Shown: positions 20,075 to 48,481 of the stretch, piece after piece
How the letters are laid out: each line of letters opens with the position of its first letter
How positions within the stretch are numbered: position 1 is the stretch's first letter
IMG/VR virus record: IMGVR_UViG_3300013947_000024
Coordinates: 32,001-96,000 of that record
Reading direction: 5' to 3' (one strand)
Length of the DNA: 64,000 bases
Origin: a virus
Taxonomy: Duplodnaviria; Caudoviricetes
Made by a program: the position numbers and the translations under genes
Notes under the pieces: model-generated
Told to the model about the DNA's origin: nothing
Database searches by the model: none
Seen by the model: only the letters and a program-made list of their open reading frames with translations

Positions 20075-20103
20075 ATAATTATTCAGCAGGAACGCATATT
20101 TAT

Positions 20104-20254
20104 GAGGACATGAAAACTTACGACTTTAGTCGTGAGATGACTCGCTAACACGCGAGCACGCAGGGTCGGGACGACCCGTAGAGCCTGTGGAGACGCCCGC
20201 GTTAGCGGGGTCGATGAAGCAGGAATCTTGCCACTTTAGTGGCGAGAGGTTCAA
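20104..20254 (+). mobile_element. Miniature non-autonomous IS200/IS605 element (left end + omegaRNA right end, no ORF)
   Basis: Follows TTTAT (20099-20103); LE hairpin CTTACGACTTTAGTCGTGAG; scaffold GGGTCGGGACGACCC..GCCTGTGGAG..GAAGCAGGAATC; RE hairpin CTTGCCACTTTAGTGGCGAG-AGGTTCAA. Confidence 0.8.
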
Positions 20255-20302: not shown

Positions 20303-20905
20303 ATGGAATATTTTGACGGCGTAGTAGCCGCTAAACTTTTTGGAGGCGGTGGTGGCGGTGGAGAACCCGTAGATGTTAGTGGCAAGCTCGACAAGGTAAC
20401 AACGACAGCTCTCGTCCCTCGTGTATACGGCGTAAAAGAAGATGGTAGCCAGCTGACTTATTTTGCCACTCCGAGCACAGACGCAAATACCATTGTCATG
20501 AGAGACGCCTCTAAGCATATCGCCGTCGAAGACGGTGTTGCTCCCAAACAGGCAGTAAACAAATCGCAGTTAGACAAGAAGCTCGACATTGAAGGCGGAG
20601 ATATTACTGGAGACCTTTCTGTGGCTGGTAATGTCGACATCACCGGGGTAGCAACACACACAGCGGAAGCGATTTTTAATAGTGGGCTTGAATCTGATGG
20701 TCCTGTTAATGTGAATAATTCCCTCGTAAAGATTACGAATGTTACGAAAGACATTGTTACACAGTATAACGCGGACATGATTACCCTTGAAGAGAACGGA
20801 GATGCCAAACAGTATAATTATACATTTCCTCGCTCTTCTGGCGCGCTTGCTGTTACAGCTCATTCAGAGATTATCAACGAAGACACAGCGGAACAAACGG
20901 TTGAT
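20303..20905 (+). CDS. Tail fibre-like protein, exon 1 (interrupted by IStron)
   Basis: The ORF's only stop is the first codon of the insertion (TTGAT|TAA); it is in frame with 22704-24017. Confidence 0.8.
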
Positions 20906-21360
20906 TAAGAGCACAACACAAACTTTTGACTTTAGTCATGAGTTAAAGTGTGCAAATAGTTAGCACATAGGGAAACTTGTGTGTAGTGGCGCTTACGGCG
21001 TCCAATATTACTTGAAATGCTGGAAACTCCTAAAGCTATTTGAACCACAACATAATTCATTAAATGGAATAAGTGTGACGGTAACGAAAGTAGAAAGAAT
21101 CAAATAGATGGTGCAGGGTTAAATCCTAAACACTCTTACAAAAAAATGGAGAATCAGCAGGGAAGCTCGAAAGAGAACCCCCAACGACTATTCCTCTTGA
21201 GGGAAGTAGGAGCAAGCGCTCCGAAGTGGGTAAGCCCAAACAGGCAAGCTGTGGGATAAGATATAGTCTGTGCTCATGTGAAAGCATGAGATACCTACCG
21301 CTAAACAATACGGCGGATAAGGATGTGTGAGAGTAGCGACCTCATGCGAACGACAACCTC
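20906..21360 (+). ncRNA. Group I intron catalytic core
   Basis: P AAATGCTGGAAACTCC (21015-21030), Q AATCAGCAGG (21152-21161), R CAACGACTAT (~21182), S AAGATATAGTCTG (21258-21270); 3' limit approximate. Confidence 0.85.
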
Positions 21361-21478
21361 TAAGCGACCGATAACCACGGTTATTGTGTCTTCTACAAAA
21401 TTAACAATTGAATATTGGTAACATCACTCTGAAAGCAAGTGTAAAAAAACTTATATAGAAGTAAGAGGAGGTGTTACA

Positions 21479-22585
21479 ATGGAAAAAGCATACAAGTTAA
21501 GAATCTATCCAAACAAACAACAACGGATTCTTTTAGCTAAAACATTTGGATGCGCCAGATTTGTGTATAATCACTATCTCAACAAGAAGATTGATTTATA
21601 CAAAGAGTCTGGCGAATCAATAAGTAATAACGAATGTTCGAGAGATTTAACACTCTTAAAACAGGAGTTAGAATGGCTACAAGAACCTGACAAGTGCGCT
21701 CTTCAAAACGCTCTAAAAGATTTGGATGCTTCGTATAAAAACTTCTTCAAGAATCCATCTCATTTTGGATTCCCAAGGTTTAAGTCGAGGCATGACAATC
21801 ATAGAGCGTATAGAACGAGCTTCTCCAACGGCAACATTGCAATCGCTGGAAATCATATCAAACTTCCTAAACTCGGACAAGTAAAAATCAGAGATAAGTA
21901 TCTTGTTCAAGGAAGAATTTTGAATGTGACAGTATCGCAAGCGCCGAGCGGGAAATATTTCGCCTCTGTTTGTTGTACGGATATTCCGCAAATAGATCTG
22001 CCGAAGACTGGCTCTGCTATCGGAATTGATGTTGGATTAAAGGAATTCTTAATTACAAGCAACGGCGACAAGGTTGCTAATCCAAGATATTTGAGCAAAT
22101 CCTTAGAAAAACTTGCAAGACTTCAAAGAGAGCTTTCGCGAAAACCAAACGGAAGCAATCGGAGAAATAAGGCAAGAATCAAGGTGGCGCGTCAATATGA
22201 AAAGATTAGCAATCAACGAAAAGACTTCTTAAATAAACTCACAACGAACCTTATTAAAGAGAATGACATCATCTGCGTTGAGGATTTACGGGTTGAGAAT
22301 ATGGTTAAGAACCATAAGCTCGCAAGGTCTATTTCAGATGCGTCGTGGGGTGAGTTTAGACGGCAACTTGAATATAAGGCAAGATGGTACGGAAAGAGAA
22401 TTTCTGCGATAGATTCTTTCTTCCCATCAAGTCAGACTTGTAGTTGCTGTGGATTTAAGAATGTAGGGACAAAAGACTTGTCCGTAAGAGAATGGGTGTG
22501 TCCACAATGCAATACGAAGCACGATAGAGACATCAATGCGGCTATCAACATTCTCAACGAAGGATTAAGACTTGTTACTGCATAA
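21479..22585 (+). CDS. tnpB: TnpB RNA-guided endonuclease (IS605 OrfB)
   Basis: N-terminal [11 protein letters not shown]...[10 protein letters not shown]; RuvC residues GIDVG, VEDL, DRDINAA; zinc ribbon CSCC...CPQC; AGGAGG RBS. Confidence 0.95.
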
Positions 22586-22612
22586 ATTGTTAATAATGTA
22601 GAATATACAATA

Positions 22613-22703
22613 ACCGCTGGAACGGCGGGGATAGCTCGGTAAATATCCCGACAGTAGTCGGGAGTTCCCGAGAACCCTGCGACTTTAGTCGCAGGAGGTT
22701 CAG
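22613..22703 (+). ncRNA. TnpB omegaRNA scaffold of the IStron
   Basis: Stem CCGCT-GGAAC-GGCGG whose loop can pair with the terminal GTTC; RE hairpin; predicted guide is the exon 2 start TCTTGGAAGATTAAAG. Confidence 0.8.
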
Positions 22704-44672: not shown

Positions 44673-46244
44673 ATGCCTAAAATCGTAATTAACGAAAAAG
44701 ACCAGACATCTCCTACCGCAGAACAACTGAGTGAAGATATTGTTTTTATCCCTGGTTTTGCAAATGTGAACGGGAATGTGTATATTAGTACGACAAGGGG
44801 AGAAACTCCAAAAGACGGCGTAGAGGGTACCGGAACAAAGGGTACTATCTATAAAGCTGGCGATACTGTTGACACCGCCAATGACGATCCGAGTATCTTC
44901 TCTAACACCGTTGATCTTAAGTCTTGGCAGTGCAAGCAGGTACCAGACGCTAAAGCCGATCCTCAGGTCACAACTTATGTATGGACTGCGCTGGACACCT
45001 ATGTGGCTCCGCACCCCGAGAATGAGATCGTTGTGTGTTACACCACCGAAGAGTTTCAGCAGAACTTTGGCACGGAGCCAGCTAAGTTCTCTGCCCCACA
45101 GGATCTTACTAATAACTGCTCTGATACGGCAAAATCGTATGCGTTTGAGAATGTTGAGGCGTTTCGCGCCAAAGATGATATTGACCTCTCTTATACAATG
45201 GCTATGGAGTGTCTGACTCTTGGTCTTCCTGTTGCGTATGTGAACATTACGAAGAGAGAAGCTGGTGCCCCGTATGTAGAGAAAAAGATTTCAGATCTTT
45301 ATGATACACTGCCGACTGTTCTTGCAGACCTTGCTGACCCTGATTATGTCTATACAAGATACATCACAAGTGGCGCATATCCTTCTTTTGAAATGCAGAC
45401 CACGAATGGCGCTCGTCTTGATAAGGCGATGATTGCTACGGCGAAAGCAAGACAGGACGCTTATGCGATTATCGACCATGGGGATAATTCCGCAAGACCT
45501 CTGTCTGGTACAAATTCTGTTATTTCGCAAGTTAGAGCTGATTTCGCACAGACAGACAAAGACGACAATAGTAACTCTTATGGCGCGATGTTTACGCCGT
45601 GGGGCACTTATAACATCACCAACCTGAATGAAAACATCGGTGGTGGTACACAGTCGATGCCCGCTTCCTTTGCGTATCTCTGTTGCCTTGGCAAAGCTCT
45701 GTCGGCTGGTAATCCTGCTTATCTTGCAATTGCTAACATTGGCAGAGGAAAGCCTCCGTTCCTGACTCATCTGAATACTACACAGAGACTTTCGAGCACG
45801 ATCGCAAACACGGCAATGCAGAGCGATACGGCTATCTCCATTAACCCTATTACGAATATCAATCCTTACGGACTTGTGATCTACGGAAACAATACGCTGA
45901 AAGATAATGCTTTTTCAAAGGGCAAACAGGCGTCTTCAGACCTTAACATCAGAAACCTTGTGAGCCGTGTTACAAAACTTCTTCGTGATGCCGCCCAACA
46001 GATTATCTTTGAGCCGAACACGGACGCTCTGTGGGTAACATTCAAGGGCAGAATTATGCCGTCTCTTGATACCATGGTAACGAATCAGGGTCTTAAGAGA
46101 TATAACATCGTTAGAGTCGATTCGAGCAATCCCAGAGAGGTTAAGGCAAAGGTTTATCTCTTCCCTGTTTATGCAGTTGAAAAGGTAACGATTGACCTTA
46201 TTCTTTCTGACGCTGGTATTACTGTAGAAGGAGGAAATGAGTAA
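44673..46244 (+). CDS. Tail sheath protein
   Basis: MPKIVINEKD start, SYGAMFTPW, INPITN, IYGNNTL, LNIRNL, FEPN...W motifs. Confidence 0.9.
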   Translation: MPKIVINEKDQTSPTAEQLSEDIVFIPGFANVNGNVYISTTRGETPKDGVEGTGTKGTIYKAGDTVDTANDDPSIFSNTVDLKSWQCKQVPDAKADPQVTTYVWTALDTYVAPHPENEIVVCYTTEEFQQNFGTEPAKFSAPQDLTNNCSDTAKSYAFENVEAFRAKDDIDLSYTMAMECLTLGLPVAYVNITKREAGAPYVEKKISDLYDTLPTVLADLADPDYVYTRYITSGAYPSFEMQTTNGARLDKAMIATAKARQDAYAIIDHGDNSARPLSGTNSVISQVRADFAQTDKDDNSNSYGAMFTPWGTYNITNLNENIGGGTQSMPASFAYLCCLGKALSAGNPAYLAIANIGRGKPPFLTHLNTTQRLSSTIANTAMQSDTAISINPITNINPYGLVIYGNNTLKDNAFSKGKQASSDLNIRNLVSRVTKLLRDAAQQIIFEPNTDALWVTFKGRIMPSLDTMVTNQGLKRYNIVRVDSSNPREVKAKVYLFPVYAVEKVTIDLILSDAGITVEGGNE

Positions 46245-46867
46245 TGATCAAAATCAAAGGCGTTAATAAAGAGAGCACTGTTTCCACTCCTTCTCTTGAA
46301 GCGCATAGCGCATATGCTCTCGCGGATAACCCCGAGCTTTGGGAACCGCAGAGACAGAACAACTTCGAGTTTGTCGTTTCTGACCTTGACAACCTTGTAA
46401 GACCTGGCGTAGACCCCGAGTCCGATAACGCGAGCTTCGGTAACGCGCAGAAACTTCTCCGTCTCTCGGTTATGAGTTCGTCTGTCCCTCACTATACGAG
46501 CAATGTTATCACTCTTAACAGAGGTAACACCTCGATGAAGGTTGCTGGCAGAATGGAATTCCCCGAAGGTCAGCTTGTTATTCGTGATGCTATCGGAGCA
46601 GACACGAAGTCCATTCTCATGGCGTGGCAGATGAAGGCTGGCGACCCGCAGACTGGCAAGGTCGGTCTTATGAGCGACTACTACAAGGACGCGTGGCTTA
46701 TCGAATATACTCCTGATTATCAGGTGGTTCGTCAGTGGAGACTTAAGGGGTGCTGGATTAGCGGTCTGACCGAAGACGCCTACAACATGGATAACGACGG
46801 TGAGAAGACAGTGACTGCTACGATTCAGTACAACATGGGCTATATCGACAATAGCGACATTCTGTAA
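46244..46867 (+). CDS. Tail tube protein (T4 gp19-like)
   Basis: EPQRQNNF, KVAGR, WRLKGCW motifs; follows the sheath. Confidence 0.85.
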   Translation: MIKIKGVNKESTVSTPSLEAHSAYALADNPELWEPQRQNNFEFVVSDLDNLVRPGVDPESDNASFGNAQKLLRLSVMSSSVPHYTSNVITLNRGNTSMKVAGRMEFPEGQLVIRDAIGADTKSILMAWQMKAGDPQTGKVGLMSDYYKDAWLIEYTPDYQVVRQWRLKGCWISGLTEDAYNMDNDGEKTVTATIQYNMGYIDNSDIL

Positions 46868-46879
46868 TGAAATGCTTGT

Positions 46880-46955
46880 ACCGTTGGCGCGACGGAAACA
46901 TAAAGCCTGTGAGGAGCAGGAATCCGAAAGGAAGCGCACAAATACAACGCACGGC
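46880..46955 (+). ncRNA. Stand-alone minimal TnpB omegaRNA-like RNA with putative guide
   Basis: CCGTT-GGCGC-GACGG, AAACATAAA linker, GCCTG..CAGG stem, AA-TCC-GAAA-GGA, AGCGCAC; same element order as the two IS605 omegaRNAs in this window. Confidence 0.6.
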
Positions 46956-46987
46956 GGAGCGGACATGGTTCTGCTTCGCCGTTTTCT
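46951..46987 (+). terminator. Intrinsic terminator after the tube gene/omegaRNA-like element
   Basis: Stem ACGGCGGAGCGGA / TCTGCTTCGCCGT followed by TTTCT. Confidence 0.7.
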
Positions 46988-47005
46988 GTTAGAGAGGGGA
47001 AGATA

Positions 47006-48481
47006 ATGGCAAAGAGACTTAATCCTAACTTATGGGAAGATTCAAGATTAAAGCCAGAAGTATTAGAAGGCGTTAAGAACATATATGAATTCTTCATCCA
47101 CCACTTTATAGACGAGTCAATCCCTCTTGACCCAGTAGATGTGAGAATCGTCGGCTCTAATGCCGCGTATAATTATACAGACAAGTCTGATGTGGATATT
47201 CACATTGTAGACGGAAATACAAACAAAAAAGATATTACCCGATATGCTCAGTGGAAAGCTACGAGAGATTTTAACGATAAATATGAAATCACTCTTAAAG
47301 GCGTCCCTGTTGAGCTTTATATCGAAGACATAGATAAGCCCGCTGTGTCAAACGGTGTTTATTCTGTTACGGATGAAAGATGGCTACGCTATCCTCTTCC
47401 AGAACGCTCGTCAGAGGCGTCAGAATTGCCTACAATCGACGAAAGCAATGAATGGGTACAACTAATCACAAAAGCAGAGAAAAACGCGTCAGCTAAAGAA
47501 ATTCAGGCGCTTATCGACAAACTCTATGCCATGCGCAAGGAATCCATTGCAGATGATGGTGAAAAGGGTAAGGGGAACCTTATGTTTAAGGCTCTCCGTA
47601 ACGCTGGCTATATTGACAGAATCAAGAAGGCATTGGATAAAGCTGTATCAAAGGAATTATCCGTAGAGAGCCTTCATGAGTGCTTGCTTGAAAGAACACG
47701 CTCTGACCTTATTCGCCAGTCAAAAGATAGCGCTAAGGGAAGACAAAGATACGATAGAAGAACAAAATCAAGTGTAGCAAGAACGGTTCAACAGTATAAC
47801 GAGATAGACATGAATAAGCTCTTCAAAGAGGATATTCTCACCGTTGACCTTCCTGTAAGAGGAGAAACAGATAATTATACTGTTAAAGTCAGCTTTGGTG
47901 GATTTCTTGATTCCCTACATGATGAAATGAAGAGGAATAACGGTGAGTTTGATTTCCGAGCCGTAACGAGAGCACTTCTTACTTGCTTTGATAGAGATGA
48001 CACATTTGTAGGGTGTAGTTGCGCCGACTTCCGCTATCGCTTCGCATATGTAGCAACAAAACGAGACTATATGTCAATGCTCCCCCAAATGATTCCCGCA
48101 AATATAACGAATCCAAAAGACTCATTGGGAAGTGCTTGTAAGCATGTTCTTCTTGTACTGGCTAATCATTCATGGCTATTAAAGGTAGCGAGCGTAATAA
48201 AGAACTATGTCACCTATATGGAAAGACATTATCAGAAAATGTACGCAGATATTATTTATCCCGCCATCTACGAGAAACCGTATGAAGGTGGGGTACAAAT
48301 CACTATTGATGACGAGCAAAATGTTCCCCAAAAGGACACCATTACGCAAGCTAATATTGCCGCTCAGCAAGGAAGTAGATTCCAAAAGGGCAATGTGCAG
48401 GGCGTAAGGTTTGCTCCTAAATCAAAGCCTGATGAGCAGATAAGCATTGAAGACGAAGAAGAAGTAACTGAAGAAAATTAA
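47006..48481 (+). CDS. Pol-beta-type nucleotidyltransferase fused to a SWIM zinc-finger domain
   Basis: IVGSNA.YNY...SDVDIH and VELY motifs; linker LSVESLHECLLER; CSC.DF...CKH SWIM motif. Confidence 0.7.
   Translation: MAKRLNPNLWEDSRLKPEVLEGVKNIYEFFIHHFIDESIPLDPVDVRIVGSNAAYNYTDKSDVDIHIVDGNTNKKDITRYAQWKATRDFNDKYEITLKGVPVELYIEDIDKPAVSNGVYSVTDERWLRYPLPERSSEASELPTIDESNEWVQLITKAEKNASAKEIQALIDKLYAMRKESIADDGEKGKGNLMFKALRNAGYIDRIKKALDKAVSKELSVESLHECLLERTRSDLIRQSKDSAKGRQRYDRRTKSSVARTVQQYNEIDMNKLFKEDILTVDLPVRGETDNYTVKVSFGGFLDSLHDEMKRNNGEFDFRAVTRALLTCFDRDDTFVGCSCADFRYRFAYVATKRDYMSMLPQMIPANITNPKDSLGSACKHVLLVLANHSWLLKVASVIKNYVTYMERHYQKMYADIIYPAIYEKPYEGGVQITIDDEQNVPQKDTITQANIAAQQGSRFQKGNVQGVRFAPKSKPDEQISIEDEEEVTEEN

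Follow-up and report, generated by a model that had tools for sequence, protein, structure and literature searches.

A 61-nt scaffold derived from a TnpB omegaRNA, immobile and with a fold that appears to be under selection, in the 3' untranslated region of a phage tail tube gene

Here, we analysed the region downstream of the tail tube gene in a virus genome of 129,560 bp, which is estimated to be 83% complete. Bases 32001-96000 of this genome form the 64,000-nt stretch of DNA that we call the window, and all positions given below are those of the window unless they are marked as genome positions. The tube gene (46244..46867, plus strand) is an open reading frame for a protein of 207 aa with a weak match to the Pfam family Phage_T4_gp19, relatives of which carry PF06841. 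Between its stop codon and its terminator lies a truncated omegaRNA scaffold of 61 nt (46879..46939, plus strand), which sits in the 3' untranslated region of the gene and is separated from the stop codon by a short spacer (46868..46878, plus strand) that varies in an alignment of sister phages. The downstream neighbour of the element is an open reading frame of 491 aa without a Pfam match (47006-48481).

All parts of the element are encoded on the plus strand. Stem 1 (CCGUU/GACGG, 46881..46895) carries the loop GGCGC, of which bases 2-5 form the 5' strand of a pseudoknot, and is followed by an A-rich linker (46896..46905) that drifts freely by substitutions and by +1 and -1 indels. The base of the central stem (CCUGU/GCAGG, 46906..46920) is closed by the 5-nt loop GAGGA, the distal stem of canonical members being absent. 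After AA, a 3-bp hairpin (UCC-GAAA-GGA, 46923..46932) takes the place of the TnpA-binding right-end hairpin, and the scaffold ends with A-GCGC-AC (46933-46939), in which GCGC is the 3' strand of the pseudoknot and is followed by the terminal AC (46934..46939). At the position equivalent to a guide lies the flank AAATACAACGCACGGC (46940..46955), which overlaps by 5 nt with the stem of the intrinsic terminator of the tube gene (46951..46987), composed of a 13-bp stem (46951-46982), a 6-nt loop and a T-run. A first-pass annotation, made by reading the sequence of 46880-46987, had listed these segments, and each of them was found in its place. Taken by itself, the scaffold is of ordinary thermodynamic stability (z -1.5). 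In the minimum-energy fold, the spacer segment GCUUGUA (46874-46880) can pair with UACAACGC (46944-46951) and thereby closes the whole scaffold; of this pairing, only UGUA/UACA is conserved among variants. Small open reading frames over the element were considered as coding and were ruled out by the +1 and -1 indels in the linker.

Five canonical omegaRNA scaffolds and four intact tnpB genes occur in the same genome. Each of the four TnpB proteins has preserved its RuvC D-E-D triad as well as the cysteines of the zinc finger. Four of the five scaffolds follow a tnpB gene (window 21479-22585; genome ~100558-101700, 104894-105988 and 116416-117507), and the fifth belongs to a protein-free mini element (window 20161-20254). 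The TnpB IStron element (20906-22703), whose tnpB gene (21479-22585) encodes the Pfam domains OrfB_IS605, Cas12f1-like_TNB and HTH, has its canonical scaffold at the right end (22612..22703, plus strand); that of the mini element lies at 20161..20254 (plus strand). Both had served as reference IS605 omegaRNAs in the first-pass annotation and proved genuine, with 67 and 64.7 bits, respectively, in the family model described below. The IStron-like insert interrupts a tail-fibre-like open reading frame; in our reading, TTGAT (20901-20905) closes exon 1, and exon 2 continues in frame from 22704. At gathering score, no group I intron was recognised in the insert by Rfam. Three further full TnpB elements lie outside the window (genome 100558-101807, 104894-106124 and 116416-117646; L008, L077 and L009), and their TnpB proteins are only 36-43% identical to the IStron copy, all in one phage genome. 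The mini element (20090-20254) is probably a non-autonomous derivative of the second TnpB element: their right ends are 92.6% identical in blastn (genome 101714-101807 for the latter), and TTTAT precedes the left ends of both.

A family model was built from the 3' ends of TnpB relatives in viral and prokaryote contigs, for which 23 canonical scaffolds were aligned and the candidate was excluded. In its 5' part, the canonical plan consists of a 5-bp stem 1, a 5-nt loop starting with GG and a short linker ending with AGC; the 3' part comprises a central stem based on CCUGU/GCAGG with a long distal part, a GAA junction, the right-end hairpin and an NNNC-A-N end. Three nested helices are backed by compensatory changes in these 23 canonical scaffolds (RNAalifold). 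When the window was searched with filters off, 46879-46939 was the third-best match of the covariance model (17.8 bits, E about 0.02-0.03). It aligns to model positions 1-91 with two local ends, and these coincide with the missing distal central stem and the missing right-end hairpin, in agreement with the earlier reading of an omegaRNA-type scaffold with a pruned central stem. The fourth-best match in the window reached 11.1 bits and noise in other searches 13.5-15.5 bits, so that the score of the element, which exceeds the best noise match by only about 2 bits, is by itself marginal. The 15.5-bit match (genome 106774-106863) was taken as chance; it covers the end of one gene together with a ribosome-binding site and start codon. 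Sister variants of the element scored 21.4, 16.9 and 14.9 bits with the same model, and one variant (L046) stayed below 13.5 bits.

Separate support comes from the pseudoknot, since the covariance model cannot see it. The two GCGC strands of the element are complementary at 4/4 positions. All of 27 sequences are fully paired in this helix, three of its four pairs changing on both sides, and covariation is seen among the 24 canonical members (GAAC:GUUC, GGAU/GAAU:AUUC, GGCA/GACA:UGUC and GAAG:CUUC). The candidate brings C-G and G-C pair types that occur in no canonical member; pairing was kept through changed bases, just as had been noticed at first reading. A descriptor composed of the family-invariant features found exactly the five canonical copies and the candidate in the real genome, and it gave 13 matches in 200 random genomes (0.065 per genome). 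One might argue that ordinary small hairpins upstream of a terminator resemble an omegaRNA by chance, given that model noise reaches 15.5 bits and that the invariant-based descriptor does find its rare matches in random genomes. However, the match covers the full length of the model in the right order, the pseudoknot is complementary, the arms of the central stem equal the family consensus, and the element is a discrete indel relative to the sister clade; we regard chance as a very improbable explanation. We conclude that the origin of 46879-46939 is the omegaRNA scaffold at the right end of an IS200/IS605 TnpB element. In the alignment columns that both have, the identity of the candidate is 60-77% with canonical scaffolds and 60-69% with the resident ones. 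As it is no closer to the latter, it is not a recent copy of any of them.

Searches in public collections returned little. Rfam gave no match in the window at gathering score; the canonical scaffolds were missed as well, so this result is uninformative for the omegaRNA family, and with E<=10 only a chance snoRNA match (E 8.6) appeared at the locus of the element. No match was found by blastn of the element region against GenBank phages. Exact and degenerate patterns of the element yielded a single chance match in viral and JGI metagenome contigs, which lies inside a coding region.

Compared with its canonical relatives, the scaffold is strongly reduced in length (61 nt vs about 92-126 nt). It has kept stem 1, the pseudoknot, the central-stem base, the GAA junction and the terminal CAC; absent are the distal central stem, the TnpA-binding hairpin, the conserved TCAN end, the left end, an adjacent tnpB gene and the TAM. 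In canonical members, the right-end hairpin has a stem of 5-8 bp and a CTTTAG-type loop; in the element it is reduced to 3 bp with GAAA, a replacement already recognised in the first-pass annotation, and no CTTTAG-type hairpin was found on either side of the element. The terminal TCA(N), which we take to be the right cleavage site of TnpA from established IS608 biology, has a T that is invariant in 24/24 mobile members. This T is a G in the element, and its partner in the loop is now a C, so that pairing is kept. Having no left end and no adjacent tnpB gene, and having lost both the TnpA hairpin and the TCAN end, the element cannot transpose.

Relatives of the tube protein fall at 98-100%, 92%, 79% and <=58% identity. 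All contigs of the 98-100% cluster that extend into the intergenic region carry the element. It is missing from the 92% clade, in which the terminator is identical and the flank nearly so, and also from the 79% clade and from viral contigs at 51%, which have only a different, short terminator. Flank and terminator (46940-46995) are 100% identical across the 98% clade, and the part that starts at ACAACGC and takes in the terminator stem and the T-run is identical even in the 92% clade, despite a difference of 49% at the 4-fold sites of the tube gene; the terminator region is either under strong constraint or was recently exchanged. A pattern search for this terminator in viral and metagenome contigs gave no match. 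Since flank and terminator occur without the element, both pre-date it or at least exist independently. The first-pass annotation had described a scaffold with its own guide and terminator, a view that has to be given up: both are found in element-free relatives and represent the pre-existing terminator region of the tube gene. In a MAFFT alignment, the element-free allele of the 92% clade matches the last bases of the element at 9/12 positions, so that a loss in the 92% clade is as possible as a gain in the 98% clade. Whether gained or lost, the element is dispensable. In one sister contig, a run of N covers exactly the element (L060:2998-3075), and another (L047) ends in Illumina adapter sequence just past the spacer; assembly across the element seems to be difficult when the coverage of a sample is low.

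Does the flank act as a guide? According to this explanation, TnpB loaded with the RNA of the element would cut a TAM followed by AAATACAACGCACGGC, for instance in the element-free allele of co-infecting relatives. The terminal CAC ends the scaffold directly before the flank, like in canonical members; omegaRNAs act in trans (10.1101/2023.11.20.567912); and a related clade does carry an element-free allele. On the other hand, the flank pre-exists as the 5' arm of the terminator, and only about 11 guide nucleotides lie outside the 13-bp terminator hairpin. In the element-free allele, the seed carries a 1-nt indel, and neither TTGAT nor TTTAT precedes it. Moreover, the 129.6-kb genome contains no target for the flank next to TTGAT or TTTAT, the best TAM-adjacent 16-mer having 7 mismatches, which extends to the whole genome the earlier failure to see a TTGAT-adjacent target by eye. 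Other matches to the flank in the genome are at chance level and none of them is TAM-adjacent, and the TAM-plus-guide pattern has no match in viral contigs. A guide aimed at the left ends of IS605 elements was ruled out, as TAM-adjacent 16-mers including these left ends have at least 7 mismatches. Finally, the flank is invariant among sister variants, and because it pre-exists in element-free relatives there is no sign of a guide chosen for a target. We consider a fixed DNA-targeting guide, which would give homing or allele exclusion without a transposon, unlikely.

Further variants of the element were recovered from DNA contigs of sequencing runs, and a small sample of about six variants from three lineages, with tube genes that are 24-36% divergent at their 4-fold sites, could be compared. 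Within the clade, 3/34 paired sites are variable, compared with 11/27 unpaired sites and 44/90 4-fold sites of the neighbouring tube gene (paired vs 4-fold, p = 2e-5; unpaired vs 4-fold, p = 0.5; paired vs unpaired, p = 0.005). Hence, the helices are conserved, and linker and loops evolve at the pace of synonymous sites. Two of the three changes at paired sites keep the pairing (U.G to U-A in stem 1, and C-G to U.G); the third is an A.A mismatch that breaks stem 1 in L046 only, the variant that also lacks the GNRA loop. One variant has GAAG instead of GAAA as the loop of the 3-bp hairpin. The central stem is invariant, whereas its loop exists in four versions (GAGGA, GAATA, AATGT and GAAGA). 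Unpaired bases that are invariant in the family (A2, the first G of the loop, the AA junction and the A of CAC) are variable at 0/5 sites, compared with 11/22 for the other unpaired bases. Compensatory double changes were not found within the clade, and the case for selection is therefore a contrast in conservation and not one of covariation. The first-pass annotation had proposed to test covariation and guide variability in related phages: the helices are conserved, no double change accompanies this conservation, and the guide is invariant. Its central idea, that the fold was kept while mobility was lost, fits the absence of all mobility features and the rarity of changes at paired sites. The immobile omegaRNA-derived scaffold is real and its fold appears to be under selection.

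Might the element nevertheless be a functionless relic? It would then be the right end, now in decay, of an IS605-family element that had its left part and tnpB gene deleted, and the apparent conservation would reflect a small sample or a recent common ancestor. IS605-family elements are numerous in the genome, the element is dispensable, L046 has a broken stem and a lost GNRA loop, and the 9/12 alignment of the element-free allele with the end of the element could be the remnant of a deletion. But loops, linker and spacer diverged at the synonymous rate while the helices did not, and a recent intergenic exchange would have left the loops identical as well, so that we give this explanation a rather low probability. 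About as little weight can be assigned to a structure of the 3' untranslated region that is independent of TnpB, in which the former omegaRNA would serve as a compact fold for stability or termination of the tube mRNA. Its place in a major late gene, after the stop codon and before the terminator, would suit such a role, and so would selection on helices and not on loop sequence. However, in the ancestral arrangement the terminator is sufficient, the stability of the fold is not unusual, the strands of the pseudoknot are conserved, and the family-invariant unpaired bases do not vary (0/5, against 11/22 of the other unpaired bases).

This brings us to TnpB as the possible partner of the scaffold. 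The scaffold is predicted to be a late transcript, at the 3' end of the abundant tube mRNA, and it may have been kept because at least one of the phage's four TnpB proteins, all with an intact nuclease, still binds it in trans. It has been shown that omegaRNAs work in trans and that binding of TnpB to the omegaRNA represses IStron splicing (10.1101/2023.11.20.567912), and protein-free elements encode omegaRNAs that are used in trans (PMC10055086). As a decoy, the scaffold would titrate TnpB away, e.g. from the transcript of the IStron that interrupts the tail-fibre gene. We give an even chance to the proposal that the immobilised scaffold is kept by selection as a predicted TnpB ligand, decoy and guide roles being combined. 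A non-targeting ligand, i.e. a decoy, is taken alone only a tentative proposal, albeit somewhat more likely than a guide. Likewise, it is doubtful whether the minimised 61-nt scaffold is a working ligand of the phage's own TnpB, made in bulk from the tube mRNA, be it as a decoy by which the tail-fibre IStron transcript would escape TnpB and could be spliced, or as a fixed guide directed at rival alleles. As a largely decayed relic could still bind TnpB, the rough stand-alone probabilities of these readings overlap, and the balanced estimate applies to the combined ligand reading. For ISDra2, contacts with TnpB are described for stem 4 and for stem 3a, the latter touching RuvC, and stem 3b alone was shown to be removable (PMC10097598); with stem 3 gone and stem 4 reduced to 3 bp, the element may no longer be bound by TnpB. 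The breakage in L046, the lack of double changes, the small number of variants, the element-free 92% relatives, the ordinary stability and the near-noise model score count against the ligand reading, too.

Among known systems, the closest architecture is that of the ISDra2-type omegaRNA, whose solved structure comprises stems 1-4 and the pseudoknot and is matched by the canonical scaffolds of this genome (PMC10097598). The element shares with it stem 1, the pseudoknot between loop and pre-guide strand, the base of stem 2 and the position of the guide directly after the scaffold. Unlike the ISDra2-type omegaRNA, it has no upstream tnpB gene, left end or TAM, with the tube gene upstream instead; stems 3a and 3b are absent, stem 4 consists of 3 bp with GAAA, GCAC stands for TCAN, and the length is 61 nt vs 116 nt. 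A short cap for the distal stem and a GAAA tetraloop are also found in the engineered Trim2 variant of the ISDra2 omegaRNA (PMC10097598). However, the trimming in Trim2 is confined to the disordered stem 3b, and stems 3a and 4 are left in place, whereas the element is devoid of all of stem 3 and carries GAAA on stem 4. Like PATEs (PMC10055086), the element contains an omegaRNA without a gene of its own that is, here by prediction, dependent on TnpB made elsewhere. PATEs keep both transposon ends and stay mobile, whereas the element has neither end hairpin; the PATE of the window is 20090-20254. The guide RNAs of TldR, a group of repressors that descend from TnpB and are nuclease-dead, are likewise omegaRNA-derived and no longer located in a mobile element (PMC10705468). 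The element differs from them in that it has no adjacent tldR-like gene and that its guide shows no target choice. Concerning a nuclease-dead TnpB as counterpart of TldR, all four TnpB proteins keep D-E-D in the record, which is 83% complete.

If TnpB binds the scaffold, it would be, as far as we found, the first immobile and selected omegaRNA without a transposon, without a tldR-like partner and outside CRISPR, and possibly an intermediate step on the way of guide RNAs out of mobile elements. It would also represent a minimal scaffold of natural origin, much shorter than those obtained by engineering, with potential use in compact genome editors. The decoy reading would tie the element to the conflict between IStron splicing and omegaRNA binding, and the tail-fibre gene of the phage depends on splicing. 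As a structured relic only, the element would be a small curiosity. In two unrelated viral contigs, we observed second omegaRNA scaffolds upstream of tnpB (L012:1334-1425, 85 bits; L020:55-173, 33 bits), which suggest tandem or nested elements.
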